A DNA stretch of 64,000 bases from the IMG/VR virus record IMGVR_UViG_3300050120_000121, positions 1 through 64,000 of that record. One strand, 5' to 3'. Below the pieces are notes generated by a model. The model searched no databases, was not told where the DNA came from, and saw nothing but the letters and a program-made list of their open reading frames with translations. This DNA comes from a virus. Both the position numbers and the translations under genes were made by a program. Positions 3,046 through 37,832 of the stretch are shown here, in pieces; positions within the stretch are counted from its first letter, which is position 1, and each line of letters starts with the position of its first letter.

Positions 3046-6000
3046 GTTATCCACAATCGACGGCATATACCGTGTTGATGAAGCTGTTCCTCGCGGGCAC
3101 GAACACGCCAGCGACGGGAAAAACGGCAGCGGTTACGTTGAGCAAGGCCGGTGCGGCGTTTGGAAATCCGTCTGCCGGTGCGTCGAATGCGACGGAAGTT
3201 GCCAACGGGGTTTATTCCTACGCATTGAGCGTGACTGACACGGGGACCATCGGCGATTTGTGGATTCAATTCACGGCGACCGGGTGTGATGTCGGGGACC
3301 GATGTTTGCCAATCGTCAACGCGAACAATGGCGGGCTGGTGGCATTGCCAAACGCGGCCAGCGGATCGGCTGGCGGCGTGCTTGTTCAGGGCACTGGCAC
3401 GACCGGAGTGGCAGTTACGGCCGGTAAGATCAATGGGGTGTCTCTCGTTGATACACTCACGACATACACAGGCAACACTCCGCAAACAGGTGATTCATTC
3501 GGTTTGATTGGGACCGCGGGCGTCGGCCTAACAAATCTCGGCGACACGAGGATTGCCCATCTCAATGCAGACGTCTCGTCTCGAATGGCCACCTATACAC
3601 AACCGACCGGATTCCTCTCGGCGACATTCCCAACTGGTACGATCGCCAACACCACAAATATCACGTCTGCGAGCGGAATCACAGTATCGACTAACAGCGA
3701 CAAAACTGGGTATTCACTCACGCAGTCATTCCCGGCAAACTTCAGTAGCTTGGCAATCGATAGTTCGGGCCGGACAAACGCGTTCCTGATTGGAATCCTG
3801 ACGAGCGTCTTCACGGAAGGCGTGACGGGCCAGATCGCAGCGGCGTTCAAGCAGTTCTTCAACATTGCCTCGCCAACGTCGACAATGAACACAATTACCA
3901 CAGTGACGACGACGACAACGGCGACGACGGCGACAAATCTTACAAACCTTCCCGCAGTTCCCACGGATTGGCTAACGGCAGCGGGAGTGAAAGCTGACGC
4001 GGTAACGAAGATTCAATCCGGTTTATCCACCTACGCGGGCGCAGATACAGCGGGAACGACAACGCTTCTGACACGATTAACGGCGGCGATTTTGTTCGAC
4101 GGCAACGGGTTCGTGAAATCCGACGTGGAAGACTGGAAGGCAGCAACAGCGCCCGCGATGACAGGCGATTCGTTCGCATTGATCGGGACTGCTGGCGTGG
4201 GCTTGACCAATCTTGGAGATACGAGAATCGCCCATCTGAACGCGGATATCACCAGCCGCATGGCCACCTATACGCAACCGACTGGATTCTTGGCAGCGAC
4301 ATTCCCCAGTGGAACGATCGCGAACACAACAAACGTGACGGCAGGGACGATCACAACCGTGTCCGGCAATGTCAGTGGAAACGTAGTTGGATCGGTCGGC
4401 AGCGTCGTCAGTCCCGTTCAGGTGTCAAACATTGGCGAAAGTTCATCGGCATTAAATGGGATTGCGGCAGCATTCACGCAAACGACCGGCAGCGTGACAA
4501 GCGGCACATACGCGAATACGGCGACTCTCGACGGCGTGTCGCACGTGACGGCGGATTCAGCGGGAACGCTCGATGAATATTACGACTTCTCGATCGGCAC
4601 AACGGGACAGATCGGCACATCATTTCAGTTCGAAGGCTATTTGGTTGGTATCGCCAATACTCTGAAAGTGTTTGCGTACAACTGGGGAGCAACGGCATGG
4701 GATCAGATCGGCAACATTGCCGGAGTGACGACGGTTACGGATCAACTATTTGAGTTTGACGTGGTGAACTCGCACACATCAGGGACGGGCGTTGTGCGGA
4801 TTCGATTTCAGAGCACGGGGCTGACAACTGCGGCGTTGAACGCTGATCGTCTGCTGCTTGGATACACTGTTGTGCAATCGTTCCCAAGCAACTTTGCGAG
4901 CTTGGGTATTACGGCAGCGGGCAAGATCAGCGAAGTCGTGCTAGTTGATACACTGACGACATACACGTCGAACACTCCACAAGGCGGTGATTCGTTTACC
5001 TTGATTGGAACCGCAGGGGTCGGACTAACGAACTTGGGTGATACGCGGATCGCTCATCTCAATGCCGACGTGTCGAGTCGGATGGCGACATACACTCAGC
5101 CAGCAGGATTCCTAGCGGCGACATTTCCAACGACAGTTGCGAGCCCTACAAATATCACGACTGCGAGCGGAATCAGTCTTGCTGCAAGTCAGCATGTCAT
5201 TGTTGATTCTGGGACCATTACGACTCTCACGAATCTTCCAGCCATCACGACAGATTGGATTACATCTGCGGGCGTAAGTGCGGCGGCGGTAACGAAAATT
5301 CAGTCCGGTCTCTCGACATACGCTGGCGGTGCTGTGGCAAGTGTGGCGGGCAATGTTGGAGGGAATGTTGTTGGTTCGGTTGGCTCGATTTCAGGTGTGA
5401 CGTTTCCGACACATTTCAGTTCGATCGCAATCAGTGTCTCCGGTATTGTTTCAGCCGATGCTGCCACATTCGACGGAGGTACATCGTGGGTTCATACTGG
5501 CGGGAAGCCGTGGGTACTGGACGGTAGTGGCAATGCCGTGGCCCCAGCATCGGCGACGACAGCAATTGCCAGTGTTCTTCCGGCAGCGGAATTCAACAAA
5601 GCTGGTGGATTGGCTTCAATGGTGGCGTTCGACGGAACTGCGGCATCGGGTGGCACTAATACAGTCGTGCTTTCGGCAGCGCTAGGAGCAGACAATCTTG
5701 TTGCGAACAATCTGTTTAACATTATTGCCGGGCATGGAACAGGCATTTCCATGCCAATTGCTACTTACGTCGACAGCACTCAGACACTCAGCTTTCTCCA
5801 AGCATTCCCGATTACGCCGAACAATACCAGCCAATTTGTAATCACCTATGACGATACCCCCGGAACTGACGGGTCCGGTTCCGTGAGGATTCAAAATGGT
5901 GTACTGACGGGCCAAATCATCACAAGCGGCGGTCTCGCAAATGTCAATGTGACTGAGGTAAATGGCACAAATCAAACGGCGGGTGACATCTGCGGAAAGC

Positions 6001-6890
6001 TCGGTACTCCTGCCGGTGCCTCAATTGCTGCTGACATTGCCGAAATTGAAGCTGAGACTGACGGTATCGCGACAGTTCAAACCGGAGTGACGTCATTGCT
6101 TGTTGATGTTGGCCTGATTCCGACGGCACCACTCCTCGCATCGTCCTACACTGCTCCGAACAATGCGGGAATTGCAACGATCATTGCGGACATGAATAGC
6201 CTGACATCGACCGGGTCCAACAGCTTGGCAACCGTGCAAAGTCACGGTGACGGAACATGGTCGACCGCAACGGGATTTGCGACTCCGACGAACATTACAG
6301 CCGGGACAATCACGACCGTTACTGGTGTTACCGGATTGACGACATCGACAATTGCAGCCGCCGTGTGGGCATATATCCTCACTGGCTCAACGTCCGCTGG
6401 AGTGATGCTGCTGTCGGTGGGTGGCTGGATTTCGACCGCCGCAGTGAATATCCGAAACGCGGTCGGAATGGGGTCGGCGAACTTAGACACGCAACTAGCC
6501 GCCGTTCCAACAGCCGTTCAGAACCGACAGGAAATGGACAGCAATTCTACACAACTGGGAACGATCATTACTGATCTCGGAACCATCGAAACTCACGCCG
6601 CGAGCGCGGACACGAACGCCACGGCAGGGGCAGCATCCGCAGCAACAGCGGTCACTCAGACGACGGCAGCGGCAATCGGGAATGCGGTGCTCGATCAAGC
6701 GAACGCAATTGAATCGGGAATCACGCTGAGAGGTGCAACGAAAGTTGTCTTCGCTTCGCAAGCGGGTAAGACAAACGGGGCCGCAACTCCGCCCTTCAAC
6801 ATCCGCGACTATCACGATACGAAGAACGTAATTTCAGCGGTGGACGATTCAGACGGAAACAGAACTTCAACGACTGTGGACGTGTCGTAA
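3042..6890 (+). CDS. Large repetitive structural (fibre-like) protein, 1282 aa
   Basis: Three copies of GDSFxLIGTAGVGLTNLGDTRIAHLNADxxSRMATYTQPxGFLxATFP and two of TNLPAxxTDWxTxAGVxAxAVTKIQSGLSTYAG; C-terminal DSDGNRTS motif. Confidence 0.75.
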   Translation: MSYPQSTAYTVLMKLFLAGTNTPATGKTAAVTLSKAGAAFGNPSAGASNATEVANGVYSYALSVTDTGTIGDLWIQFTATGCDVGDRCLPIVNANNGGLVALPNAASGSAGGVLVQGTGTTGVAVTAGKINGVSLVDTLTTYTGNTPQTGDSFGLIGTAGVGLTNLGDTRIAHLNADVSSRMATYTQPTGFLSATFPTGTIANTTNITSASGITVSTNSDKTGYSLTQSFPANFSSLAIDSSGRTNAFLIGILTSVFTEGVTGQIAAAFKQFFNIASPTSTMNTITTVTTTTTATTATNLTNLPAVPTDWLTAAGVKADAVTKIQSGLSTYAGADTAGTTTLLTRLTAAILFDGNGFVKSDVEDWKAATAPAMTGDSFALIGTAGVGLTNLGDTRIAHLNADITSRMATYTQPTGFLAATFPSGTIANTTNVTAGTITTVSGNVSGNVVGSVGSVVSPVQVSNIGESSSALNGIAAAFTQTTGSVTSGTYANTATLDGVSHVTADSAGTLDEYYDFSIGTTGQIGTSFQFEGYLVGIANTLKVFAYNWGATAWDQIGNIAGVTTVTDQLFEFDVVNSHTSGTGVVRIRFQSTGLTTAALNADRLLLGYTVVQSFPSNFASLGITAAGKISEVVLVDTLTTYTSNTPQGGDSFTLIGTAGVGLTNLGDTRIAHLNADVSSRMATYTQPAGFLAATFPTTVASPTNITTASGISLAASQHVIVDSGTITTLTNLPAITTDWITSAGVSAAAVTKIQSGLSTYAGGAVASVAGNVGGNVVGSVGSISGVTFPTHFSSIAISVSGIVSADAATFDGGTSWVHTGGKPWVLDGSGNAVAPASATTAIASVLPAAEFNKAGGLASMVAFDGTAASGGTNTVVLSAALGADNLVANNLFNIIAGHGTGISMPIATYVDSTQTLSFLQAFPITPNNTSQFVITYDDTPGTDGSGSVRIQNGVLTGQIITSGGLANVNVTEVNGTNQTAGDICGKLGTPAGASIAADIAEIEAETDGIATVQTGVTSLLVDVGLIPTAPLLASSYTAPNNAGIATIIADMNSLTSTGSNSLATVQSHGDGTWSTATGFATPTNITAGTITTVTGVTGLTTSTIAAAVWAYILTGSTSAGVMLLSVGGWISTAAVNIRNAVGMGSANLDTQLAAVPTAVQNRQEMDSNSTQLGTIITDLGTIETHAASADTNATAGAASAATAVTQTTAAAIGNAVLDQANAIESGITLRGATKVVFASQAGKTNGAATPPFNIRDYHDTKNVISAVDDSDGNRTSTTVDVS

Positions 6891-10398: not shown

Positions 10399-11949
10399 AT
10401 GCCGCAAACCGCAGACGGCGTGTCCTATGTTACGTTCCAACCGGGTCCGCAAGAGCAAGCTCTTTCCAGTCCCGCAGACGTGGTTGTCATGGGAGGCGCG
10501 AACGGAGGGGGCAAGTCATATTGGCTTTTGCTAGAAGCTGCTCGCCATATTGATGTGCCGGGATATCGTGGTGTCATCTTCCGCCGCGAATCAACCGACA
10601 TTACGGACCCTGGCGGATTATGGGACACGTCAATGGGTGTCTTTCCGCAGATTGGCGGATGGCCACGAACGAACAAACTCGATTGGGTTTTCGAACCAGA
10701 TGCCCGCGTTTCGTTTCGGGGATTGCCACATTTCAAGGACGCAGTCTCGTGGGACGGGAAGGAACTGGCGTTCATTGGCTTCGACGAAGGCCAGTTATTC
10801 ACGGAGATGCAGTTCTGGTATCTCTTCAGTCGACGACGTTCGACATGCGGTGTAAATCCATGTATCAGAATGAGTTGCAATCCTGTTCATGAAGACGATC
10901 CGACCGGAGGTTGGCTAAAAAAGCTGATTGGCTGGTGGTTGGATTGGGACACGGGATACCCGATTAAAGAGCGATCTGGCGTGATTCGATGGTTTTGCCG
11001 AATCAACAACGAAATCATTTGGGGTGATTCGTCGGAAGAACTGATCCAAAAGTACGGCGACCCGAATCTGGCAAAGGATCACGAGGACCAGCCAGTTCAA
11101 CCGATGTCACTGACGTTTGTTCCGTCGAAACTGAAGGATAATCCGCTCCTAATGAAGGCAACTCCCCAGTATCGGGCGAGCCTCATGGCGTTGCCGGATC
11201 ACTTGCGGAAGCAGAAGCTCGATGGCAACTGGAACGCGAAACTCGAAGCCGGAACATTCTTCAAGATCGGCGTGATGAGCCGTCCAAATATGATCGTCGG
11301 TGAATTGCCGAATGATCTAAGATATTGCCGTGCATGGGATTTGGCTCACACGGAAAACGCAGGTGACTGGACGGTGGGAGCGAAGATTGGCAAGGATTCG
11401 GCCGGGAATCTTTACATCGCCGATATCATTCGAGGCCAGTGGGAAGCGTTCAACCGCGATGAGCGGATGAAAATCGCCACATCTGACGACGGCTACGATT
11501 GTCGCGTCCGCATTCCTCAAGATCCATCGGCGGGAGTCTCAGAAGCGGCGAGAATCCAGAAGACGCTTGGCGGATATATCGTCAGGGCAGTTCCCCCGCG
11601 TGGAAAAAAGGAAGATCGGGCGGGAGGTTTCCAGAGTGCGTTCAATGCCGGGAACGTCAAAATGCTTCGAGCACCGTGGAACCGCGGACTTCTGCAACGG
11701 CTTGACTCGTTTCCCACAAAAGGAATACCTGACGACGAAATAGACGCATTGGCAGACGCTTACGACGAACTGTATCCAACAAACAAGCTCGTGATGGGTT
11801 TCGAAAGTCGTGGCGACAGCGACAAGGACGACGACGAAAAGCCAGTCGATCATCCCTTCAAACCGCTGATCGAACCGCCTGCTGAGTCGGAAGGACCGCC
11901 GAAACCAGCGGAACCGCAGAGTCGACGTCTGATAATGGGCTTTAGCTGA
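10399..11949 (+). CDS. terL: Terminase large subunit
   Basis: Q motif PGPQ, Walker A GGANGGGKS, Walker B FIGFDE, motif III SCNP, nuclease motifs RAWDLA and DDEIDALADA. Confidence 0.95.
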   Translation: MPQTADGVSYVTFQPGPQEQALSSPADVVVMGGANGGGKSYWLLLEAARHIDVPGYRGVIFRRESTDITDPGGLWDTSMGVFPQIGGWPRTNKLDWVFEPDARVSFRGLPHFKDAVSWDGKELAFIGFDEGQLFTEMQFWYLFSRRRSTCGVNPCIRMSCNPVHEDDPTGGWLKKLIGWWLDWDTGYPIKERSGVIRWFCRINNEIIWGDSSEELIQKYGDPNLAKDHEDQPVQPMSLTFVPSKLKDNPLLMKATPQYRASLMALPDHLRKQKLDGNWNAKLEAGTFFKIGVMSRPNMIVGELPNDLRYCRAWDLAHTENAGDWTVGAKIGKDSAGNLYIADIIRGQWEAFNRDERMKIATSDDGYDCRVRIPQDPSAGVSEAARIQKTLGGYIVRAVPPRGKKEDRAGGFQSAFNAGNVKMLRAPWNRGLLQRLDSFPTKGIPDDEIDALADAYDELYPTNKLVMGFESRGDSDKDDDEKPVDHPFKPLIEPPAESEGPPKPAEPQSRRLIMGFS

Positions 11950-16435: not shown

Positions 16436-19400
16436 ATGGGAATCTTCAATAGCTGGTTCAAAGGCTCGCAAGCCAAGCCGATCATGCCGCTTCCCGCGGA
16501 ACTGCCCGCGATGAAGTCGCTGAACATGGCGTCGGCAATTCGGCCAGCCCTAGCCGGCGCTTTCCCAGGCGCGATGTGGATTTCTGACCACAGAACGGAA
16601 GCCGAGCAGAATACCGGCTGGAACCACATTGCCATCAACGCGATCTGCCAGCAATTGGCATCTGCGACCGTGACGGCATATGAAGACGGTTCGAATCAAG
16701 TTCGCAACCAATCCCGTCGCAAATCTCTGCGGAATCTCTACGGGACGATTTCAAACTACAAAGCCCAATACGGACAGGACGACGATGAAACACGACCGTT
16801 GGACAACGCTCACGCCTTGATGAAGCTGCTGCAAAAGCCGAATCCGTTTGAACCTGGTTCGATGTTTCGCTATCGGCAGGCACAACAGTTGAGACTTACT
16901 GGCACAAACTTAGTGTGGAATGTTCCAAGTCTTTTGAAGACTCCAGAGTCGCCGCAAGGCCTTCCATGTCAAAGGTATGTGGTTCCAATTGCGATGACGA
17001 CAGCGATTCTGCCATCAGAGGAAATGCCGTACGGTGGATATCGCATTATCCCGAACACGTCACGTCAATTCCTACTCGACAAGGACGGGTATCAACCGGG
17101 ATCACCGATCTGGTCATTTCTGATGGGCGTGATTATTGATGCACGGCACATTCAGAAGATTGGCTACCCTCACGGCTGGCGGTTAGATGACTTTTGGTCG
17201 CCAGTATCGGCAGGATCGAAATGGATTGACGGTGCGAACGCCGTTGATTCGTCGCGGTTCGCTCAGATGAAAAACGGTGCCGATCCATCCGTTCAAGTCG
17301 AACTTAGTCCTGGAATTAATCCGACTCAGGACGAAATGGATCGCGTCAGTGCGAAAGCGTCGAAAAAGTACGGTGGACCTGATAACGCGGGCTCGATTTG
17401 GTTCACGGAAAATGGGACTGTGATTCATCCACTTTCAACGTCTCCCAAGGACATGAACTACAAGGAAGGCTTCCAAGACTTCAAGGAAGCGATTCTAGCC
17501 TTGCACAGCACGCCTCCAACGGCTTGCGGAATCATTGACGTGGGCACAACGGCCGGCTGGCTGGCGTCGATGCGAGGCTGGTCACATGCGGCGATTAAAC
17601 CGATGTGCAGACTCTTGGCAGATTCAGACACGCATCACCTCGCCCCACAATTCGGAGAGGGGATTACGGTCGAGATTGAACCGGAAGAAATCAACGATGA
17701 GGTGGAACGGAACGCACGTTGCCAAGTCGCGATTTCAGCGAAGTCGATTTCCAAGAACACGCTGAATGCAACTCTCGGATTCAAGCTCTTGGAAGGATCA
17801 GAAGGCGACAAGTTAGCCGGTCCAGACGCTCCACAACCGGGACAAGGCGGAAATCCGACTGCGAAACCCGAATCAGGCTCATTGACTGATTTGCCAAGCC
17901 CAAGCGATCCGGGCGACGCATACTCAGGGAATGCCCGTGGCGAAACTACAAAATCACTTCAGGCAGTTCGCGACGGCATGCGGGAGGCGGACGACGAATA
18001 TATCGCGGAAGTCGTTGAGCGAGCCGTAGCGGCGAAACTGAAGTCGATGGGCGAACCATCTGCGGCACAAAGGGAAGCGGGAAACTACAAAAAGACACAT
18101 ATCACGATTCAAGGCTTGCGAATCAGCATCGAGAATCCAAAAGGGTCAATCCGCAGCGGAACGAGCCGACAGGGGCAATCATGGTCAATCGAAATGGCCA
18201 ACGACTACGGATACATCAAGGGAACCGAATCGGGGGCGGATGGCGATCATATCGACGTGTTCATTGGCCCCAATCCCGAATCAGAACTGGTGTTTATTGT
18301 CGATCAGGTGAATCCAGACTCAGGTGACTTTGACGAGCACAAGGTGATTCTCGGAAGTGATTCGAAAGCCGAAGCCAAACAAATCTACTTCGCGAACTAT
18401 TCGAAGGGATGGAAGGGATTTGGCGACATCACGCCGATGCACATTGACGACTTTAAGGAATGGCTGAAGGCGGAAGATTCTTCGAAGCCAGTTGGCGATA
18501 TTGAACCGCGAAAATCTGGTGAAAGTCGATTCATCACGTTTGACGATTTGAAACAGTTCGGCAAATCTCTCGGCATGTCCACCAGCAATGGCAGTGACGG
18601 AGGATTCACGGTTCCAGAGGAGTCACAATCGGCAATCAAGGATCGGCAGGAAATCGCAGACGGTCAAGGTTACGGAAAGTGTCCAATGTGCGGTGCGGAA
18701 GCTGTCAGCCGAAATCGCGGTATGGGCACAAACCAAAACGACACTTGCCGAAATGGACACGTCTATTTATCGGACATGACGATTGTGAACCAACCGAAAG
18801 AATCGGCAGAAGTTCCAATTGTGGAACAAAGCGTCGAACCCGCAAAACCAGCGAAGAAATCCGTCAAACGTCGGAAGCCTGTTTTGAAGCATGACGTCTC
18901 AGGCGAAAACCGAGATCACGGCAAGTTTGCGGTCACAGCAGGAAGCGGAAAGAAACCGAACGAAAATCACTTGCGAATTGAAAGCGGACACGTCGTACCG
19001 GAGAATACTCACGTTGATGTCGCGGGAACCACATACCATCCGGGAGAATTCATTCATTCGCATCAAGTGTCGTCTCTGACTCCGGAAGAACGGTCGAAGA
19101 ATACGGAATCACTCGGCGGGAAAAAGATGGAGAGAATCTATCGAAATGCCGATACGGGAGAAGGATTATCTTCAGAACATGAGGCAGAAGTTCGCGGATT
19201 AAAGATCCGACCAGACCTGAAAAACGTTACTCTGATGAAGAACGATCATGGGGAATTGAAGGGATATGGGACAGATTCGAAAGGTCGTCGCCAGCCAATT
19301 TATCCAGCAGCACACACGGAGCGAGCAAAGGCAGCGAAGTTCGAACGTCTCAAGGAATTCCAGTCATCTATCGGGAAGATTCGTGAGCGACTGGCCAGCG

Positions 19401-20080
19401 ATTTGAACAGTCCCGACGAGAAGACGCGAGAAGGGGCGTTACTAGCTCGTCTGATTGAAAAGACGGGTATGCGAGTGGGCTCGGATAAAGACACAGGGGC
19501 TGAGAAGAAGGCAACGGGGGCGACGACATTGGAGCCGCAACATGTCAAGATCGACGGCAATAAAGTGACGATGGAATTCGTTGGTAAAAGCGGACATGAC
19601 AATCATTGGGAATTGAATGATCCAGTGATTGCGAAGGCATTCAAGAATCGCATTGAACAAGGAAAATCGCGGTTGTTTTCCATAAATGACACGCAATTTA
19701 GGGATTACATGCATGATGTGGCTCCAGGATTCAAGGCAGCAAAGGATTTTCGCACGGCAGCGGCGGCGGAGCATGCAATATCTGCGGTCGATGGCATGAA
19801 AGAACCGACGACGGCAACTGAGTATCGAGAAGCGTTAGGAAAAGTCGCGGCACACGTTTCTGGCCAGATCAACAATACGCCAGATGTCGCGTTCAACTCA
19901 TACATTCCTCCCGAGGTGTTTGGACAATGGCAAGCGAACCTGCTGAGCAAGGGGATCGACGTAACGGGGTTGAAGCCCTCGTATCCCAAGGCAACGTCTA
20001 TGGTGGCACAGAGCGAATCGCCGCCGATGAAGGAAAAGATTGGTGGAAAGCAGAAGAAACCGAAGAATACAAACGCATGA
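16436..20080 (+). CDS. Portal protein fused to a pyrophosphatase-like domain, a Zn ribbon and DNA topoisomerase IB
   Basis: N-terminal HK97-type portal motifs (LLQKPNPF, LRLTGTN, KYGGPDNAG, PKDMNY); AGNYKK...IENPKGS...YGYIKGT...DGDHIDVF...FDEHKV; TopIB motifs GTDSKGRRQ, MRVG, FVGKSG, KDFRT, NNTP, SYI. Confidence 0.9.
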   Translation: MGIFNSWFKGSQAKPIMPLPAELPAMKSLNMASAIRPALAGAFPGAMWISDHRTEAEQNTGWNHIAINAICQQLASATVTAYEDGSNQVRNQSRRKSLRNLYGTISNYKAQYGQDDDETRPLDNAHALMKLLQKPNPFEPGSMFRYRQAQQLRLTGTNLVWNVPSLLKTPESPQGLPCQRYVVPIAMTTAILPSEEMPYGGYRIIPNTSRQFLLDKDGYQPGSPIWSFLMGVIIDARHIQKIGYPHGWRLDDFWSPVSAGSKWIDGANAVDSSRFAQMKNGADPSVQVELSPGINPTQDEMDRVSAKASKKYGGPDNAGSIWFTENGTVIHPLSTSPKDMNYKEGFQDFKEAILALHSTPPTACGIIDVGTTAGWLASMRGWSHAAIKPMCRLLADSDTHHLAPQFGEGITVEIEPEEINDEVERNARCQVAISAKSISKNTLNATLGFKLLEGSEGDKLAGPDAPQPGQGGNPTAKPESGSLTDLPSPSDPGDAYSGNARGETTKSLQAVRDGMREADDEYIAEVVERAVAAKLKSMGEPSAAQREAGNYKKTHITIQGLRISIENPKGSIRSGTSRQGQSWSIEMANDYGYIKGTESGADGDHIDVFIGPNPESELVFIVDQVNPDSGDFDEHKVILGSDSKAEAKQIYFANYSKGWKGFGDITPMHIDDFKEWLKAEDSSKPVGDIEPRKSGESRFITFDDLKQFGKSLGMSTSNGSDGGFTVPEESQSAIKDRQEIADGQGYGKCPMCGAEAVSRNRGMGTNQNDTCRNGHVYLSDMTIVNQPKESAEVPIVEQSVEPAKPAKKSVKRRKPVLKHDVSGENRDHGKFAVTAGSGKKPNENHLRIESGHVVPENTHVDVAGTTYHPGEFIHSHQVSSLTPEERSKNTESLGGKKMERIYRNADTGEGLSSEHEAEVRGLKIRPDLKNVTLMKNDHGELKGYGTDSKGRRQPIYPAAHTERAKAAKFERLKEFQSSIGKIRERLASDLNSPDEKTREGALLARLIEKTGMRVGSDKDTGAEKKATGATTLEPQHVKIDGNKVTMEFVGKSGHDNHWELNDPVIAKAFKNRIEQGKSRLFSINDTQFRDYMHDVAPGFKAAKDFRTAAAAEHAISAVDGMKEPTTATEYREALGKVAAHVSGQINNTPDVAFNSYIPPEVFGQWQANLLSKGIDVTGLKPSYPKATSMVAQSESPPMKEKIGGKQKKPKNTNA

Positions 20081-20754
20081 GTCCCGATGAGCAGGACGAG
20101 GCCGATGAATCGGCAGATGCCGAGAGAAATCAGGATTCCGAGAGCGATACAAAATCTCATCCAACATTGAAGTCCGAACGTTGGATAACCATCGGTGGCG
20201 ATAAAGATCCAGATGGCGACGGTGGAGGAACACACGTGAAAATCGACGACGACGGAAAGATTGTTGCGGGACCAGAAGGCTTGGCGGACAAGGGGATTCA
20301 GAAGTTGAGCGATTTCGGGAAGAATGAATCTGGCGAGTCGAAACCAGAAGAAAAACCAAAGCCAATTCCTCATGGGGAAGTTTCGTTTCGTGCGTCCGCC
20401 CCCGGTCACATGGGCGGAAAACAGCATATTGCCGAAATCACAGGTGCGGACGGACAATTTGGAATGGATCGCGATTTTGTCGACAAGAAAACCGGCAAGA
20501 AGCGAGATGAATCGGAACATACAACCAATCGACAAGGATTGTTCGAGGAGTCTGACATCACGTCGGCGGGAAAGAAAGTTCGCCATTTCGTGACACTTCA
20601 TCATCCTGAAACGGGAGTTTTAACTAAGCATCCTGTTGACAAGGAAACCGCACAGGCAATCGCGAACCATATTGGCGGAGACAACATTGAAAACGTCGTG
20701 CATTTGCGTGATGGAAAAATCCACATGACTGACGCTCCATCACGTGATTATTGA
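20077..20754 (+). CDS. Putative head-associated modular protein
   Basis: ATGA overlap with the portal; acidic leader, LKS, then RWITIGG...GTHVKIDDDGKIVAGP and an AEITGADGQFG domain. Confidence 0.65.
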   Translation: MSPDEQDEADESADAERNQDSESDTKSHPTLKSERWITIGGDKDPDGDGGGTHVKIDDDGKIVAGPEGLADKGIQKLSDFGKNESGESKPEEKPKPIPHGEVSFRASAPGHMGGKQHIAEITGADGQFGMDRDFVDKKTGKKRDESEHTTNRQGLFEESDITSAGKKVRHFVTLHHPETGVLTKHPVDKETAQAIANHIGGDNIENVVHLRDGKIHMTDAPSRDY

Positions 20755-25466: not shown

Positions 25467-25644
25467 TGGTCCGCCGGGAGGATTGCCAAAAGCGTCACCG
25501 ATTGAACGGACATTCGGAATTCTGTTGATGATCGTTCTAATCGTCCTATTTTCTCTCGGCATGGGCATCGCGTATAAACGGGATGTCCTCGATCAGAATC
25601 CAGACAAACCTTGGACGGTGAATCCCGATGTCAGAACTCCCTAA
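25459..25644 (+). CDS. Single-TM small protein
   Basis: FGILLMIVLIVLFSLGMGIAY. Confidence 0.5.
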   Translation: MLNGPPGGLPKASPIERTFGILLMIVLIVLFSLGMGIAYKRDVLDQNPDKPWTVNPDVRTP

Positions 25645-28219
25645 TCGTGAAGATTTGGAATCTCAATTCGCCAAGAGATTCGGCAAGCTCGCAAGACGAC
25701 ATTTAAGGGAGTTTCGCAGACTTCTCGGAGATCCTCCAGACTTGAGTAATGTCCCTCCTGAGTTTTGGGACAAAATGCAGAGGGAAACCGACGCAGAACT
25801 GTACGCGATCCTACTGCTGATCTTCGATGAATCCGCGATCTATCACGGATGGGACACTGCCGAGTCAGGATTAGCGGCATACGGCTGGGCGAAACAACGG
25901 GCTGAAGATTTCTCCAAGTATTGGGTTGAGTCGACACAGACGCGATTGGCGAACGGATTTGACAAGCTCACGACACCAGAACCAGTTCGCGAAACGACCG
26001 TAGCCGAAGCACGAGCAGCGGCGGGCATGGGCGGAACTGGAAGTCGCAATCGAACAACTGGTGGCGATGAGGATGAACCGTTCGAACCCGTCAACCGAAT
26101 CCTGCCAGGACAACAGCCAGTCAAGATCCCATCGAAGCAAGAGATTGACGAACTACTGAAGGATACGTTTGGCGAGAATCGAATAGAAACCAACGTGATT
26201 GACGAAACCACGAGGGCACGTCACGCAGGCGGCGAAGCGGCCATTGAAGAGACGGTTGGCATCTCGCAGGATGATCGCTGGCGAAACAATCCGCAGGACA
26301 GCAAATCAGGTCCGTGCCCGATCTGCACAAAACTGAATGGATTGAGAAGAGCCGATTGGCCGTGGCGATATCGTGAAGGACCGCCGTCACCTCACCCGAG
26401 ATGTTGCTGTACCGTCGATCATGCGCTGGTCCCGCTCTCCGACGCCATCGGTCGCATGTTGGACGATCCAGACTACAAAAGCCTGAAAGCGTTCAACGAG
26501 GCGGAATCGAGAGACGAAGGCGGAAAATGGACGAGCGGCGGTTCAACTGCTTCGGGGAAAGTAAATCTCGAAAAGATTCATGATCCGAGAGTTGTCAATC
26601 GCGTTCATCAAACATTGTCCGATCTTCACGACCGATTCGGATTGAAACTCGACAGCGTTGAAGCAAAGCATCTTGACGAGAATATATTCGGCAACGCCGA
26701 GTCGGCACACATGCTCACGCTTCAATCGGGGCGAGAAAAGAACGGAAAGCGGGTATGGGAAAACTCTCACCATTTAACGCTGAATTCGGATCATTGGCAG
26801 GACGGTGAATCGTTCAACAAAAAGCGTCACGAATTGCCAGATGGATACCTCGCGGATTCATCGGCAACCGGCATGATTCGACACGAGTACGCTCACGCAT
26901 TGGAAAAAGAGCATCCTGAAGACGCAGCGAAGATCCAAGAGATTTATCGACAGTACAAGCCGACTGGCGGAACCGTCAGCGGATATTCGATTCACAGTTC
27001 AAAAGAGATGGTCGCAGAAGGATTTGCTCATTGGATGCAGCAGGGATCGCTAGCAGGAACCGGATTAGACGCATTGGAACCGATTTTCAGAAGTTGGGAG
27101 AAAAATGAGCACACTGCAAAAGGAATTGGAAGTTATTCAAGTCGAACACAGATTGCGGACCGAATCGCGACTGGAGATAGAGCTTCTAAGGATTCTGCTG
27201 AGGCAGGCGACGGCATGTCGAATTACGCATCGCGACAAATGGAGAATGCAAGAGATATTTCAAGAGGTTCCTCGATTGGCGAATCAATATGGAATCGAGA
27301 TGGTGAACGCGAAGGAACTGGCCTGACTCCGCGATTCAACCTCAAGTCATGGTATCGTGTCATCCCAAACGCAGCGGAATGGCGAGCGTATTGCCGAGAG
27401 AACGAACTGGATGTGAATAACCGACTGGCATTTAAAAGTTGGTCCATGAAATCGCATGATGTCTCAGGCGAATCACGAGACGATCGCGGCAGATGGACCG
27501 TCAGCGGAAGTCGTGTCATCACCCCAAATGGCGAAAAGCATTCGTTTCACAATAGCCCAGAAGACGCTCAACAAATCGCGGACTACGAAAACAACCGAAT
27601 CGACAGCAAGCCGCTCATCGCGGAATCCAATCGGTTGCTTCGCGAACTAGGGCACCCTCCCGTCGCATCCTTCGACAAGCACGGAAATCCGACAATCCAT
27701 CCTGATGAGATCAGAGACGCGATTCATCAAGCGAATGAGGCCAACGAACTTCTGAAAGATCATCCGAATGTTCCAAAAGCGAAGGTCTCTGTAGTAGATG
27801 ACATGCCATCGAGCAGTCATGATCCAGCACAAATCAAGGAATCGCTGGAAGAGTTAAAGAAAATCAACAGCATCCTCGCAAAACATGGCCAACAGAAAAT
27901 CGGATTGTCACACGACGCTGATTTCGGCGGTGTGTTTCCAGATGTGACAGACGGCAACACGGCAGAGGATGTGACGGAACTAGATCGCGAATCCGCGAAA
28001 TTGAATAAGCGACTTGAAAGCTACGGGCTGAATCCAAAGGTTCACATCAAATTGACGAAAAGCGACGGGAGCCACGAAATCGGATTGTCACATGATCCTG
28101 ACGAATTGAGCGAGGCTCTTGATATGCTTCGAGACTTCAAGAACAAGAAAAGCTTATTGCCGGAATGGATCGTCAAGGAATTGGAGCCGTTTGGGTTCCG
28201 ATCACACTCCATTAGCTGA
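25628..28219 (+). CDS. MuF/SPP1-gp7-like head morphogenesis protein fused to an HExxH metallopeptidase and an unknown C-terminal domain
   Basis: MuF motifs ETTRA, CPICTKLNG, PPSPHPRCCC; zincin motifs IRHEYAHALE...SGYS...EMVAEGF. Confidence 0.85.
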   Translation: MSELPNREDLESQFAKRFGKLARRHLREFRRLLGDPPDLSNVPPEFWDKMQRETDAELYAILLLIFDESAIYHGWDTAESGLAAYGWAKQRAEDFSKYWVESTQTRLANGFDKLTTPEPVRETTVAEARAAAGMGGTGSRNRTTGGDEDEPFEPVNRILPGQQPVKIPSKQEIDELLKDTFGENRIETNVIDETTRARHAGGEAAIEETVGISQDDRWRNNPQDSKSGPCPICTKLNGLRRADWPWRYREGPPSPHPRCCCTVDHALVPLSDAIGRMLDDPDYKSLKAFNEAESRDEGGKWTSGGSTASGKVNLEKIHDPRVVNRVHQTLSDLHDRFGLKLDSVEAKHLDENIFGNAESAHMLTLQSGREKNGKRVWENSHHLTLNSDHWQDGESFNKKRHELPDGYLADSSATGMIRHEYAHALEKEHPEDAAKIQEIYRQYKPTGGTVSGYSIHSSKEMVAEGFAHWMQQGSLAGTGLDALEPIFRSWEKNEHTAKGIGSYSSRTQIADRIATGDRASKDSAEAGDGMSNYASRQMENARDISRGSSIGESIWNRDGEREGTGLTPRFNLKSWYRVIPNAAEWRAYCRENELDVNNRLAFKSWSMKSHDVSGESRDDRGRWTVSGSRVITPNGEKHSFHNSPEDAQQIADYENNRIDSKPLIAESNRLLRELGHPPVASFDKHGNPTIHPDEIRDAIHQANEANELLKDHPNVPKAKVSVVDDMPSSSHDPAQIKESLEELKKINSILAKHGQQKIGLSHDADFGGVFPDVTDGNTAEDVTELDRESAKLNKRLESYGLNPKVHIKLTKSDGSHEIGLSHDPDELSEALDMLRDFKNKKSLLPEWIVKELEPFGFRSHSIS

Positions 28220-34990: not shown

Positions 34991-36430
34991 ATGGACGCAT
35001 CTGTCAATCAAGTCGACGCTTCGGATCGGTATCGCGAGAATCGCGGAATCGGTTGGCAGTATCGCTTGAAAGACCTGAATGGGGCGTTGCTCGGCGGCGG
35101 GTTGGCATACGACACCGTTTCTGGCAATCCCAATGTCGACCGCACTCGAATGTCAGCAACGGCAACAATCAGTGATGCCACCATTGACAGAGTTGGCGAC
35201 GTTTTGCTTCCGCAAGGATGTGTTCTGGATGATTATCGACGAAATCCGGTATGTCTGTGGAACCACGGCCTAGACCACTCGGTTCCGTTCGCCATCGGAA
35301 AAGCAGAAGACGAAAACGGAAATCTCGCAATTCAGATCACCGAAACGGAAGTCATCGGGACAACCTATTTCGCAAAAAGTAATCCGATCGCGGTTCAAAT
35401 TTTCCAGTTGATTGACGAAGGGGTTATTAAAGCCGTCTCAGTCCGCGAAACACCGCTTGAGCAGAAGCAAATCTTTCGCAACGGTCAGAACGTAACTCTT
35501 GTTCCACGGTGGACATTGGAAGAATTCAGTTGGACGAATGTAGGAGTGAATCCTTCTGCTGTTCGAAAAACTCTCTCTCGAAATCGACTCGACGGCAAAC
35601 CGATCCTTGAACCGATTTACAAATCACTGACCGCAACACTTCCTCAGAAACCAGCAACATCCCACGGCGGATTTGTGGAGCAACCAGCAATGGCCAGCAA
35701 ACTGAAGTCTGAAGATTCTGAGATGGATGACGATGACACCACGAAAACCGCAGCGGAAACGCCTGCCGATGAAAAGCCGAACGACGGCGAAAAGCCAGCG
35801 GAAGCATCGGAAGACAAGCCAAAAGAAAATCCCGACGACGTGATGAAAGACGACGAACCCAAAGTGGGCGATCCAAATGAGGACGCAAAATTGGGACGGC
35901 AAGCAATTGGCTATGTCGATGATGGTTGCAAGTCGCTTCGCGGGACGATTCGCTCTTGCTGCAAGTCGATGGAAGAACCCGATGTAAAAGCCCATCTCGA
36001 AGCACTTCATGACACTCTCGGCGAGCATAGCACGGCACTTCAAGGTCTACGTCAAGAAAAATACCCGATGTCCAGCGTCTTGAAAGATGAGGACATGGGC
36101 GGTGGGGACGAGTCTGGTGGCGAAGACGAGGGCGGTGGCGACTCCGATTCAGCGATGAAGTCGATGTTGGCAACGTTCAGTATAAAGCGACATGGATTCG
36201 GTGGTTGCGTTGAACATGTCAAGGATGTTCTGAGGACTTGCAAGAGTCTGTCCGCCGACGAAAAACGAAAGTTGAATATTGCCATCGACGGCTTTACGAA
36301 GATCAAGTCGCAGGCCAAGTCACTCTACGAAGAATCATTGAAACGCGACACAAAAACCGAAAAGAAACCCGCGATTACCTCCGCTCAACAGGCCGAAATT
36401 GACGCCGCGTTTGCTCTGCTGAAGTCTTAA
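34991..36430 (+). CDS. HK97-family prohead protease with long C-terminal scaffold-like extension
   Basis: DRVGDVL, NPVCLWNH, IG, AVSV, LEEFSW..VGVNPSA. Confidence 0.9.
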   Translation: MDASVNQVDASDRYRENRGIGWQYRLKDLNGALLGGGLAYDTVSGNPNVDRTRMSATATISDATIDRVGDVLLPQGCVLDDYRRNPVCLWNHGLDHSVPFAIGKAEDENGNLAIQITETEVIGTTYFAKSNPIAVQIFQLIDEGVIKAVSVRETPLEQKQIFRNGQNVTLVPRWTLEEFSWTNVGVNPSAVRKTLSRNRLDGKPILEPIYKSLTATLPQKPATSHGGFVEQPAMASKLKSEDSEMDDDDTTKTAAETPADEKPNDGEKPAEASEDKPKENPDDVMKDDEPKVGDPNEDAKLGRQAIGYVDDGCKSLRGTIRSCCKSMEEPDVKAHLEALHDTLGEHSTALQGLRQEKYPMSSVLKDEDMGGGDESGGEDEGGGDSDSAMKSMLATFSIKRHGFGGCVEHVKDVLRTCKSLSADEKRKLNIAIDGFTKIKSQAKSLYEESLKRDTKTEKKPAITSAQQAEIDAAFALLKS

Positions 36431-36488
36431 ATTCGTGGCCGAATGGCCAGATGTCCGGTCCACGATCTCTGTTCAAGGATTGAATGAA

Positions 36489-37832
36489 ATGCCAACTGTT
36501 GAAGAACTCGTTGCCGAAACGAAAAAGACTGTTGCCGAACGCGATTCCGTCAAGGCTGAATTGAAATCGCTGAAGGACAAACTCAGTTCGACGGTCGATC
36601 CATCCTTGATCCATCGCGATGCAAGCGGTGCGTCGGCTGGCGGATGGGAAGAATCCGATGACGAACTGACGGCGGTTGTCGGTCGCGATGACTTGCGGGG
36701 AGTTCCGAAGCTCGAACGCCGATCGAGTGCGAAGTCAGTTATCAAGTCGCTCGTCAAGCAGGGCTACAAGCCGTATGGCGAGTTCAAGAGCTTTGGCGAA
36801 TTCATCAAGTTCGGCGTTGAAAACCGCGACTACAAAAACAAGATCGAAACTCGCGTTGGCGACCATTTCAAATCGGTCAGCAAGGCGATTCAGGGGATGA
36901 CGACCACTGACGGTTCCGATGGCGGATTCGCGGTCATGCCGGAATTCAGCAAGAACATCCTGGAGCGTTCATTCGACAACAATCTGTGGAATGAAACCGA
37001 CTCCTACACCGTCAGCGGAAACTCGATGACGTTTTTGGCCTCGGCTGAAATAAGCCGGGCTAACGGAAGTCGTCACGGCGGTCTGCAAGGCTTCTGGCAG
37101 GGTGAAGGTGGGGCTGGAACCAAGAGCAAGCCAACCATTCGCGAAGTCAATTTGAAGCTGGGCAAAATCATCATAATCGTCTACTTGACGAATGAACTGC
37201 TGGCGGACAACGCCTACGCTCTCGAACAGTACGTGACTCGCAAGGCAGGGGACGAAATCAAGTTCTTGCAAGGCGACTCGCTCATCAACGGCATCAGTTC
37301 TGGCGGTCAGCCGATGGGTTGGATCAATTCGCCGAATCTGGTCTCGGTGGCGAAGGAAGTCGGTCAGGACGCGAAAACGATTCAGACGATCAACGTCGAA
37401 AATATGTACTCGCGGTTCTTCGCTCCGATGCTTCCGAAAGCCAAGTGGTATCACCATCAGGACATTCAGCCACAACTCGACACGATGACTTTGGGTCTCG
37501 GTTTGGGACAGGTGCCGGTCTACCTGCCGCCCGGTGGGATGTCGGAAGCTCCATACGGGATGCTGAAGGGCCGGGCAATGCAGCCGACGGAATTCAATGC
37601 AACGTTGGGAACGCAGGGTGACTTGATGCTGGCGGACATGAGCCAAATGCTGTCCATCAGCAAGGGCGGAATTCAGCAGGCCGTTTCGATGCACGTTGAA
37701 TTCTTGACCGACCAACTGGCCATGCGGTTCACTCTGCGATGCGGTGCTCGTCCTTGGGAAAACACTCCGCTGACGCCATACAAGGGCACAAATAGTCAGT
37801 CGAGTTGTATCGCTTTGGACTCGCGAGCCTGA
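36489..37832 (+). CDS. Major capsid protein (HK97 fold) with N-terminal delta domain
   Basis: GSDGGFAVMPEFS, WQGEG, LTNELLAD, LING...PMG, GDLMLAD, FLTDQLAMRF. Confidence 0.95.
   Translation: MPTVEELVAETKKTVAERDSVKAELKSLKDKLSSTVDPSLIHRDASGASAGGWEESDDELTAVVGRDDLRGVPKLERRSSAKSVIKSLVKQGYKPYGEFKSFGEFIKFGVENRDYKNKIETRVGDHFKSVSKAIQGMTTTDGSDGGFAVMPEFSKNILERSFDNNLWNETDSYTVSGNSMTFLASAEISRANGSRHGGLQGFWQGEGGAGTKSKPTIREVNLKLGKIIIIVYLTNELLADNAYALEQYVTRKAGDEIKFLQGDSLINGISSGGQPMGWINSPNLVSVAKEVGQDAKTIQTINVENMYSRFFAPMLPKAKWYHHQDIQPQLDTMTLGLGLGQVPVYLPPGGMSEAPYGMLKGRAMQPTEFNATLGTQGDLMLADMSQMLSISKGGIQQAVSMHVEFLTDQLAMRFTLRCGARPWENTPLTPYKGTNSQSSCIALDSRA

Follow-up and report, generated by a model that had tools for sequence, protein, structure and literature searches.

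The window analysed here, a stretch of 64,000 nucleotides (positions 1 to 64,000 of the IMG/VR record IMGVR_UViG_3300050120_000121), comes from an uncultured tailed phage with a genome of about 100 kb (the record is 99.9 kb long), and raises the question of what a DNA topoisomerase is doing at the end of a portal protein. Type IB topoisomerases (TopIB) are familiar from eukaryotes, poxviruses and some bacteria; we know of no tailed phage carrying one in its virion. The ORF spanning nt 16436-20080 (+ strand) runs from ATG to TGA free of stops, and encodes a single polypeptide of 1214 aa with four components, in order portal (PF04860), InPase (PF18823), a CCCH zinc ribbon and a two-domain TopIB. 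Portal, pyrophosphatase-like domain, zinc ribbon and TopIB had all been called in this ORF by the sequence-only reading, and are upheld; in Pfam, Phage_portal, InPase PF18823 and Topoisom_I PF01028 each score above gathering.

Organization of the portal gene and its surroundings

The features relevant to the analysis are the following.

10399..11949, + strand: large terminase subunit, upstream of the portal (phrog_979, 1e-130; Pfam Terminase_6N/6C)
16436..17815, + strand: portal core of the HK97/PF04860 type, aa 1 to ~460 (Pfam, PHROG portal families)
17816..18055, + strand: Pro/Gly/Ser low-complexity linker and helix exiting the portal, aa ~461-540 (sequence; alignment to the Pa193 portal)
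18065..18469, + strand: InPase PF18823, family I pyrophosphatase-like OB fold, aa 544-678 (Pfam, AF2 model)
18563..18619, + strand: copy of the capsid maturation junction, K710-S711 and then GMSTSNGSDGGFTV (aa 713-726; match to capsid aa 154-167)
18671..18781, + strand: CCCH zinc ribbon, C749, C752, C771, H775 (ligand conservation, AF2 strands)
18911..18928, + strand: RD-x-G-K-F "tag", R826-F831, after a Lys/Arg-rich linker, start of the TopIB module (motif in relatives)
18971..19105, + strand: small beta domain (aa ~846-890) that precedes TopIB (AF2 model)
19148..19945, + strand: TopIB N-terminal and catalytic domains, aa ~905-1170 (Pfam, phmmer, AF2, Foldseek)
19946..20080, + strand: tail after TopIB (aa 1171-1214), closed by the TGA (sequence; AF2 confidence to about aa 1180, low from about aa 1187)
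19927..20754, + strand: next gene downstream, whose 5' end overlaps the portal-TopIB gene; reading frame open from 19927, ATG at 20077 (sequence)
34991..36430, + strand: candidate prohead protease, extended at the C-terminus by a long acidic stretch; the capsid gene follows directly (weak PHROG matches)
36435..37832, + strand: major capsid protein of the HK97 fold, delta domain ~150 aa, with the junction motif of which the portal has a copy (Pfam, PHROG)

The portal core matches Phage_portal PF04860 at aa 111-436 (2e-21, 76.8 bits; cut-off 39.1), is matched also by PHROG portal families, and is collinear with the portals of relatives P0002-P0012 (39-57% identity). Head genes are in the canonical order TerL, portal, protease, capsid, and no second portal was found when the 99.9-kb record was searched with the sequence of this one. 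The analysis shows that the gene is the real portal of the phage, extended by a flexible tail. Phage_capsid was identified at aa 163-449 of the capsid protein (2e-21), which is hit as well by phrog_10, major head protein. The protease candidate has two weak PHROG matches, to phrog_80, head maturation protease (7e-6, aa 65-190), and to phrog_11321 (3e-15), and none in a Pfam search. The MuF domain PF04233 had no Pfam match in the portal-TopIB protein (P0001), which is not classed with MuF polymorphic toxins.

In the tail, InPase is followed by the capsid junction copy, the zinc ribbon, a basic linker with the RD-x-GKF tag, the small beta domain and TopIB. The InPase match is strong (aa 544-678, 8e-56, 188 bits), and the AF2 model of the domain (pLDDT > 90) has its best PDB matches all among family I inorganic pyrophosphatases (4z70, E 6e-4). 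In the 35 relatives compared, D602, with which the motif DGDHIDV begins, never varies, nor do D607 and H635, and D604, D633, E634 and K636 are nearly invariant. The CPMC...C..GH motif supplies the zinc ribbon ligands C749, C752, C771 and H775, all invariant in P0001, P0002, P0003, P0004 and P0007. The region is modelled by AF2 as three short strands; the ribbon matches no Pfam family, and an ESM Atlas search with the surrounding aa 695-850 gave no usable match. A motif RD..G(K/R)(F/W) precedes the TopIB module of P0005, is present in P0006, P0007 and P0121, and is found upstream of TopIB in the consensus of 54 fused proteins. The small beta domain (AF2 strands at model residues 7-35, pLDDT ~88) is common to P0005, P0124 and P0121, which host the nearest TopIB modules.

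The TopIB domain and its relatives

Topoisom_I PF01028 covers aa 964-1149 (2e-25, 89.7 bits against a cut-off of 23.7), and phmmer matches the region to the TopIB of Deinococcus radiodurans (2f4q) with an E of 2e-19. The Pfam family Top1B_N_bact was not reported for the portal-TopIB protein; the alignment to 2f4q nonetheless starts at chain residue 38. Residues R1013, K1051, R1106, N1147 and Y1156 are aligned one by one to R137, K174, R239, N280 and Y289 of the D. radiodurans enzyme, which we take to be its catalytic residues, an assignment reportedly made by Patel et al. 2006. The pentad counted earlier from the sequence is thus borne out, spacings (38/55/41/9) included. Across two alignments, of 54 and 45 relatives (A1 and A3), R, K, R and Y never vary, and N is invariant or almost so.

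The AF2 model of the domain (pLDDT 88, pTM 0.79) exhibits the two-domain clamp fold, a small N-terminal beta domain and a tyrosine-recombinase-like catalytic domain; confidence decays in the tail, where pLDDT is ~75 at model residues 341-350 (aa 1180-1189) and drops under 50 starting with model residue 348 (aa 1187). The best matches in Foldseek, with E between 1e-13 and 1e-9, are TopIB structures without exception, among them 2f4q/3m4a at 1e-13 and the variola enzyme with DNA (2h7f; rmsd 3.6 A over 291 columns), while tyrosine recombinases appear only from E 3e-4. By alignment and modelling, the domain appears to be a complete type IB topoisomerase of the bacterial/poxvirus type, with catalytic residues intact, and apparently active.

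Portal fusions account for 27 of 162 close TopIB relatives and involve three Pfam portal families; 11 more are fused to MuF, and other relatives are polyvalent proteins with ART-PolyVal, 2H, GNAT, LPD1 or NUDIX domains. The closest metagenomic relatives are mostly long proteins on head-interior carriers. As 20 label changes are needed on the TopIB tree for the 27 portal-fused rows, fusions appear to have arisen many times, independently across portal families. The distribution in relatives shows the TopIB module behaving as a mobile cassette, found on three kinds of portals, on MuF and on polyvalent effector proteins. The modules nearest to that of the window lack a portal fusion: one, 66% identical, is in the free InPase-TopIB protein P0005, whose cluster is found on at least 21 contigs, and another, 68% identical, is encoded by a separate gene directly after a Mu-type portal (L021). 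Portal relatives, in turn, are collinear up to ~aa 800 and carry different cargo beyond, such as GNAT, 2H or a region with a weak, sub-threshold match to ATLF (anthrax lethal factor domain).

The sequence-only reading knew of no described portal-TopIB fusion, and literature searches turned up none; among 50,697 GenBank phage records, the TopIB part matched two, both weakly. The protein is not the singular oddity that this might have implied, given the 27 fusions counted above, and it can be said of the architecture that it is common in metagenomes, but not that it has been catalogued as such in papers. The window protein joins to a portal two shuffling effector domains, InPase and TopIB, and so belongs with the phage-type polyvalent or portal-fused effector proteins, in which a virion-associated carrier bears two or more such domains. 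Because TopIB of the same clade is found on portals, MuF and polyvalent proteins, and because portal relatives swap cargo, TopIB represents a cargo type that is new to the known portal-, MuF- and polyvalent-protein design of virion effectors (Iyer 2017).

Fate of the TopIB tail

The portal ring is presumably dodecameric, with the C-terminus directed toward the head interior. That the extension faces inward, as proposed earlier, is likely: the portal gp19 of Pa193, a Pbunavirus (PDB 9b41), also ends in InPase, and has no cryo-EM density beyond the barrel for the tail spanning aa 529-765 (PMC11456595), which is read as a flexible tail. Since TopIB sits on the inward-facing tail of the portal, the enzyme is probably loaded into the virus head.

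What happens to it there may be hinted at by the junction copy. This is identical at 10 of 14 residues to capsid aa 154-167, a score reached by none of 60 shuffles, and as Phage_capsid starts at capsid aa 163, the motif lies at the boundary between delta domain and mature capsid. The copy, which lies upstream of the zinc ribbon, is kept in the portal relatives P0002, P0003, P0004, P0007 and P0012, and a matched pair of portal and capsid motifs is found also in two related phages. These similarities suggest that the prohead protease may release a zinc ribbon-TopIB fragment. Prohead proteases work inside the procapsid, as established for HK97-type heads.

In the reading that we prefer, and whose chances of being right or wrong we regard as evenly balanced, the portal is the carrier and TopIB a capsid cargo, released by the protease, leaving with the DNA and relaxing supercoils. 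With the C-terminus of the portal directed into the head, assembly of the dodecamer would place up to 12 TopIB copies inside every procapsid. The prohead protease would then cut the capsid-like junction, at about K710|S711, and free a fragment of ~56 kDa comprising zinc ribbon and TopIB. Exiting together with the DNA, the fragment would relax supercoils of the incoming genome, independently of ATP, during entry and early transcription, as the phage equivalent of the topoisomerase carried in poxvirus particles. In the weakest step of the scheme, the acidic start of the downstream gene product may keep the enzyme from binding DNA in the cell that makes the phage.

Some observations do not sit easily with cargo release. 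A folded protein of 56 kDa would need to unfold in order to pass through the tail. In P0002, junction copy and zinc ribbon are placed after the GNAT cargo, which cleavage would leave unfreed, and the motif may therefore have another role; co-variation of portal and capsid motifs is partial (2/3 phages), and the PHROG basis for the protease is weak.

The ATG of the downstream gene, at 20077, overlaps the TGA of the portal-TopIB gene as ATGA. The product has an acidic N-terminus (net charge -8 over the first 40 aa from this start), followed by a RWITIGG...HVKIDDDGKIVAGP module. The WIT module is found in frame inside a portal or TopIB polyprotein in P0007 and, more diverged, in P0004 and L021. 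At 19 of 50 loci the ORF directly after TopIB has a strongly acidic start, compared with 2.8% among background ORFs; a LGFDP motif is common to 13 of these starts. Profile comparison detected no homology of the window's downstream protein to the acidic partners at other loci (about 0-3 bits against the partner-ORF profiles), a result that tells against the acidic-partner step.

The same acidic starts could be taken as immunity proteins, TopIB being then a toxin-like effector that relaxes or nicks the host chromosome and stops transcription and replication. Small immunity ORFs follow MuF toxins in 89% of cases (PMC5576092), and TopIB co-occurs with ADP-ribosyltransferases and Zeta-toxin-like domains. 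We consider a host-directed toxin unlikely: some 12 molecules would be weak against a chromosome that gyrase keeps re-supercoiling, the downstream protein of the window is not recognisable as belonging to the partner family, and TopIB is absent both from the listed MuF toxin domains (PMC5576092) and from the main text on polyvalent proteins (PMC5512222).

TopIB might alternatively never be released, 12 domains tethered at the portal crown forming a built-in swivel that relieves twist in cis during packaging or ejection, the option named first by the sequence-only reading. TopIB activity is not known to require ATP or Mg, and the enzyme could therefore work inside the capsid. Three unrelated Pfam portal families have recruited TopIB independently, and MuF, the second commonest carrier, binds the portal in SPP1 (Jamet 2017, PMC5576092); the frequency of portal and portal-bound MuF carriers would be expected of a function local to the portal as well, and this counts against the cargo reading. 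If a swivel were at work, this protein and the other fusions in three portal families would be the first portals to act enzymatically on DNA topology. The possibility is rather slim, as ~450 residues of linkers and other domains, including a conserved motif resembling a protease site, separate portal core and TopIB, relatives of this portal do without TopIB, having GNAT or 2H instead, and an enzyme that nicks DNA while clamped on the packaged genome could become trapped in covalent adducts. The same clade is moreover found in polyvalent proteins beside host-directed ART, 2H/Acb1-like, GNAT and NUDIX domains. Because it occurs also on MuF, on polyvalent effectors and in free-standing tagged proteins, co-delivery as cargo, the other mechanism offered by the sequence-only reading, agrees better with the comparative data than a swivel does.

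The protease-site-like motif ahead of the module, and the existence of free-standing modules, would suit also a polyprotein whose tail is cut in the cytoplasm before or during assembly, with TopIB serving replication or recombination and the fusion merely coupling late expression. We hold this to be improbable: late expression, as of structural genes, does not suit an enzyme of replication, the carriers are throughout proteins of the head interior (portal, MuF) and not arbitrary late proteins, and prohead proteases act inside the procapsid. Finally, a chimeric assembly, a missed frameshift or a decayed, inactive TopIB is hardly credible, for although, of the portal relatives found, this phage alone has the junction to TopIB (~aa 800-846), the identical 1214-aa sequence occurs on 3 JGI contigs, independent phages have the same architecture (e.g. 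portal_3-InPase-TopIB in L006), a portal-TopIB is encoded also by L005, whose 95-kb genome is complete and has direct terminal repeats, and catalytic residues are all, and family-invariant residues nearly all, retained.

Comparison with known systems

Portal-InPase fusions, and portal- or MuF-PBECR and -2H fusions, have been described as packaged, injected effectors by Iyer, Burroughs, Anand, de Souza and Aravind (2017), who defined the InPase domain and cited the portal-InPase fusion BcepF1.124 (PMC5512222). The window protein is alike in having a head-interior portal carrier followed by swappable enzymatic domains, and relatives exchange GNAT and 2H as their model expects. It differs in that TopIB is not among the domains of their main text, where "topoisomerase" occurs only in a reference title (PMC5512222), and in that an MPTase processing domain is missing, the capsid maturation junction copy being found instead. 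In this phage the copy inside the portal tail provides a testable release mechanism.

The Pa193 portal gp19 similarly ends in a C-terminal InPase, to which aa 461-687 of the window protein align (E 7e-30), the linker from chain residue 533 onward, that is, in the part without cryo-EM density. In contrast, gp19 stops after InPase, at 765 aa, and has neither zinc ribbon nor TopIB. MuF polymorphic toxins (Jamet et al. 2017, PMC5576092) share the head-interior carrier, the variable C-terminal enzyme and the small downstream ORF; the window protein lacks a MuF domain, and TopIB is not a reported MuF toxin domain.

The D. radiodurans TopIB (2f4q/3m4a) has the same two-domain fold and R-K-R-N-Y pentad, but is a free cellular protein of ~340 aa, whereas in the phage it forms the C-terminal part of a structural protein and comes after the tag and the beta domain. 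The closest functional analogy is with the poxvirus enzymes (vaccinia and variola; 2h7f, 3igc), similar in fold, which differ for the His at the fourth pentad position and are only ~17% identical. Poxvirus TopIB is packaged as a free core protein, and is not known to be fused to a structural protein. The encapsidated vaccinia enzyme acts mainly in early transcription (PMC12188299). If the cargo reading is true, a DNA-relaxing enzyme would be pre-loaded into phage heads in parallel to the poxvirus core enzyme, a phenomenon unstudied and plausibly widespread, because the closest relatives are mostly on head-interior carriers and fusions seem to have arisen many times. A "not yet discovered" group of viral TopIB has been proposed by Forterre and Gadelle as the source of bacterial TopIB (PMC2647321), and the TopIBs of phage heads would be a concrete candidate for it.

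The portal-TopIB protein and its domains

The portal-TopIB gene lies in a region encoding head proteins, the relevant features of which are listed below.

Features of the portal-TopIB protein and of its surroundings. Domains are Pfam matches above the curated thresholds.
10399-11949, large terminase gene, upstream of the portal-TopIB gene
16436-20080 (+), portal-TopIB gene, 1214 codons in one frame without interruption
aa 111-436, Phage_portal domain
aa 544-678, InPase domain (PF18823)
aa 964-1149, Topoisom_I domain (PF01028)
34991-36430 (+), prohead-protease candidate (weak PHROG matches), downstream
36435-37832, HK97-fold capsid gene, downstream

The open frame and the three domains bear out the association of portal, pyrophosphatase-like domain and TopIB in a single ORF proposed by the sequence-only reading. 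The source IMG/VR record, from a peat metagenome, is linear, 99.9 kb long, with an estimated completeness of 83%, and the window is its first 64 kb. Because of the terminase, protease and capsid neighbourhood, and because a search of the record with the portal's own sequence, confined to this portal family, matched no second copy, the 1214-aa protein is taken as the real portal of the phage. The protease candidate features a very acidic C-terminal extension of about 280 aa, ending in LLKS. PDB relatives of this protein and of the capsid protein are not detectable by sequence. Two large ORFs of the structural region, 3042-6890 (+), 1282 aa, and 25628-28219 (+), 863 aa, have no credible match in Pfam and PHROG.

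Residues 915-1165 were aligned by phmmer to the D. radiodurans TopIB 2f4q (E 2e-19). In the alignment R1013, K1051, R1106, N1147 and Y1156 fall opposite R137, K174, R239, N280 and Y289, which we take to be the catalytic pentad of that enzyme (Patel et al. 2006). This bears out the pentad residues and spacings originally assigned to the window protein. Across alignments of 54 fused relatives and of 45 mostly short ones, each of the five positions shows no variation or almost none. The AlphaFold2 model of aa 840-1214 has a pLDDT of 88 and a pTM of 0.79, and its top PDB matches are TopIB enzymes without exception. It is matched by 2f4q and 3m4a at E 1e-13, and by variola TopIB on DNA (2h7f) with an rmsd of 3.6 A over 291 columns. 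The predicted fold is that of TopIB, the module is complete, and the enzyme looks active. Tyrosine recombinase and protelomerase were discarded as alternative identities of the domain, as these folds match from E 3e-4 only, against 1e-13 for TopIB.

Ahead of TopIB lie an RD-x-GKF motif (aa 826-831, 18911-18928) and a small beta domain (aa ~846-890), both common to the closest TopIB modules. A consensus of 54 fused proteins shows the motif, in the form RD-x(1-2)-G-(K/R)-(F/W), upstream of TopIB; it may serve as a tag for loading or processing. It is found, often after HP or E, at the start of cargo modules of head-associated proteins in the window, P0005, P0006, P0007, P0121, L007 and L034.

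By fold, the model of the InPase domain (pLDDT >90) matches family I pyrophosphatases only (4z70, E 6e-4), and together with the Pfam assignment this supports its pyrophosphatase-like nature; by sequence, no match to solved pyrophosphatases was obtained. Within the DGD..D motif, D602 and D607 are invariant in 35 relatives, and D604 is nearly so. A solved portal ending in InPase, gp19 of phage Pa193 (9b41), aligns to aa 461-687 (E 7e-30). In the Pa193 virion gp19 residues 529-765 have no density (PMC11456595), as would be expected of a flexible tail inside the head. The CPMC...C..GH motif (C749, C752, C771, H775) does not vary among five portal relatives, and its region is modelled as three short strands, so the presumed zinc ribbon holds as a predicted CCCH ribbon. 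It matched no Pfam family, and comparison of the region to the ESM Atlas gave nothing useful.

Carriers and phylogeny of the TopIB module

Searched exhaustively by phmmer with aa 840-1214, a set of 1.84 billion representatives yielded 5159 relatives, of which 700 have an E value of 1e-30 or lower; related loci were searched with a 7-sequence alignment. Among the closest proteins measured (the best 150 of the 5159, plus five from earlier searches), 84 of 155 are at least 600 aa long. Fusion partners were sought by Pfam in 63 of the long (>=600 aa) proteins and in seven TopIB-carrying ORFs from IMG/VR contigs. Portals of three families, Phage_portal (PF04860), Portal_Mu (PF06074) and Phage_portal_3 (PF06381), were found, as well as MuF, prohead protease, ART-PolyVal, ADP-ribosyl exotoxin, 2H/Acb1-like, GNAT, LPD1 and NUDIX domains. 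By local profiles, 27 of 162 TopIB proteins were labelled as fused to a portal (9, 7 and 11 by family) and 11 as fused to MuF.

No portal carries the modules closest to that of the window. In P0005 (66% identical) InPase and TopIB form a free protein, and one member of the P0005 cluster occurs on 21 contigs. P0124 (63%) and P0121 (50%) match Topoisom_I only, portal and InPase matches being absent. At the locus L021, the tagged TopIB closest to that of the window (68% identical) is encoded by a separate gene located directly after a Mu-type portal gene. The two genes (1762-3558 and 3492-5003) slightly overlap, and TopIB occupies the usual place of MuF. The order portal-InPase-TopIB recurs at L006 with a different portal family. 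L005, a complete phage (IMG/VR contig, 95,123 bp, direct terminal repeats), encodes an 870-aa fusion of a PF04860 portal and TopIB. After the fusion come a MuF-like protein, whose intein and kinase-like matches are weak and below threshold, a 1015-aa protein matching ADP-ribosyltransferase and, weakly, GNAT, and an S78 protease; the head module of this phage looks rich in cargo. In the metagenome protein P0019 (1024 aa), InPase, sigma-70 regions 2 and 4 and TopIB follow one another in a single chain; a sigma factor packaged beside TopIB would be in keeping with an early-transcription role.

In a FastTree phylogeny of the TopIB domain, a quick tree in which the class 'other' includes unrecognised carriers and some 'solo' and 'other' proteins may be truncated, the 27 portal-fused rows correspond to 20 changes of label. 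Counting well-supported branches alone, at least 5, 3 and 5 changes are left for the three portal types. The window TopIB falls in a clade of 100% support with three non-portal proteins.

The portal tail and its capsid-like motif

The portal relatives P0002-P0012 are 39-57% identical to the window portal. Their sequences follow it collinearly up to about aa 800; from there on the cargo differs (GNAT, 2H phosphoesterase, an ATLF-like region or long tails without assignment), so that the tail is a cargo slot. None of the relatives found carries TopIB. One of them, P0006 (976 aa), has InPase and lacks TopIB. It is annotated at NCBI as a phage portal protein on a 7.16-Mb contig of Schlesneria sp. 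T3-172, an assignment which hints that the portal lineage infects Planctomycetota.

A segment of the tail, aa 713-726 (GMSTSNGSDGGFTV), is identical at 10 of 14 positions to aa 154-167 of the capsid protein (GMTTTDGSDGGFAV), a score reached by none of 60 shuffles. In six frames of the window, G.DGG is found in these two copies only. As the Pfam capsid profile begins at aa 163, the motif is the predicted boundary between a delta domain of about 150 aa and the mature capsid protein. A Lys-Ser pair precedes portal and capsid copies alike; HK97 gp5 is cleaved between K103 and S104. The portal motif is kept in five portal relatives, with KSLG ahead each time, and the portal and capsid pair is found again in two related phages, where co-variation is partial. 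We infer that the prohead protease would cut the portal tail at the capsid-like motif. Such a cleavage would resemble that of T4 internal proteins, which carry the cleavage consensus of the capsid protein. In P0002 the motif is located after the GNAT cargo, so that cleavage there would not free GNAT, a weakness of the release model.

Function of the fusion and relation to known systems

In the reading that accounts best for the data, given about an even chance of being right, TopIB would ride on the portal as capsid cargo, the prohead protease would probably free the TopIB-bearing tail, and the freed enzyme would be delivered with the phage DNA.

The gene following portal-TopIB (19927-20754, +) is in a different frame, open from 19927, and shares up to 154 nt with it; the ATG at 20077 and the portal-TopIB TGA share bases as ATGA. 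Its product has a strongly acidic start followed by a RWITIGG...HVKIDDDGKIVAGP module. Since this module is found in frame within portal or TopIB polyproteins in P0007 and, more diverged, in P0004 and L021, the stop codon of the window gene may mark a recent split or frameshift. Strongly acidic ORF starts directly follow TopIB at 19 of 50 other loci, against 2.8% of 613 background ORFs, and 13 of the acidic ORFs share the motif LGFDP. One family, listed first below, consists of small acidic ORFs, or of longer proteins with an acidic N-terminus, whose starts lie at most about 35 nt from the TopIB stop.

Acidic ORFs following TopIB.
Pattern (L)PD(V/I)(H/Y)FG...DW...DDEE...VV.MLGFDP: L006, L007, L029, L031, L033, L034, L040, L047, L048, L049, L051
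Variant DDFLET..F/Y...W...DPDDEE: L022, L024, L026, L028, L035, L054, L003

Homology of the downstream protein to these ORFs, suggested by eye by a MASEP start and an acidic run, was dropped, as HMMER gives no support; the likeness is in position and charge only. That the fusion is delivered as a toxin-like effector against the host, with a partner conferring immunity, is a minor possibility. A swivel fixed at the portal is rather unlikely. Release of the enzyme in the cytoplasm without packaging is improbable. A free TopIB might also come from an internal start at M901, an idea set aside: the sequence upstream, GGCGGGAAAAAG, is a weak ribosome-binding site at best, the portal's own start similarly lacking a clear one, and the methionine is not kept in P0005. 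An artefact is hardly to be entertained, and identical copies of the 1214-aa protein are found on the record from 3 JGI contigs.

Among 50,697 records of GenBank phages, TopIB matches are two only, weak and non-structural. With a 20-kb part of the window as query, megablast gave zero matches among GenBank phages, and a tblastn of the full protein yielded InPase matches, one weak portal match and nothing else. Full-text literature searches turned up no publication on TopIB linked to a phage portal, to MuF or to the virion. The earlier remark that no portal-TopIB fusion has been described thus stands for the literature searched; the fusion is not singular, 27 of 162 TopIB relatives being portal-fused, and is recurrent in uncultured phages. 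Effectors fused to portal or MuF, and polyvalent proteins, packaged and injected, were described by Iyer et al. 2017 (PMC5512222), who cite a portal-InPase fusion; TopIB is absent from their main-text discussion, and the MuF toxins of Jamet et al. 2017 (PMC5576092) are listed without it. The general design is the same, and TopIB is a new cargo. Poxvirus TopIB is encapsidated and serves early transcription (PMC12188299); a portal-borne TopIB acting as cargo would be its phage analogue.
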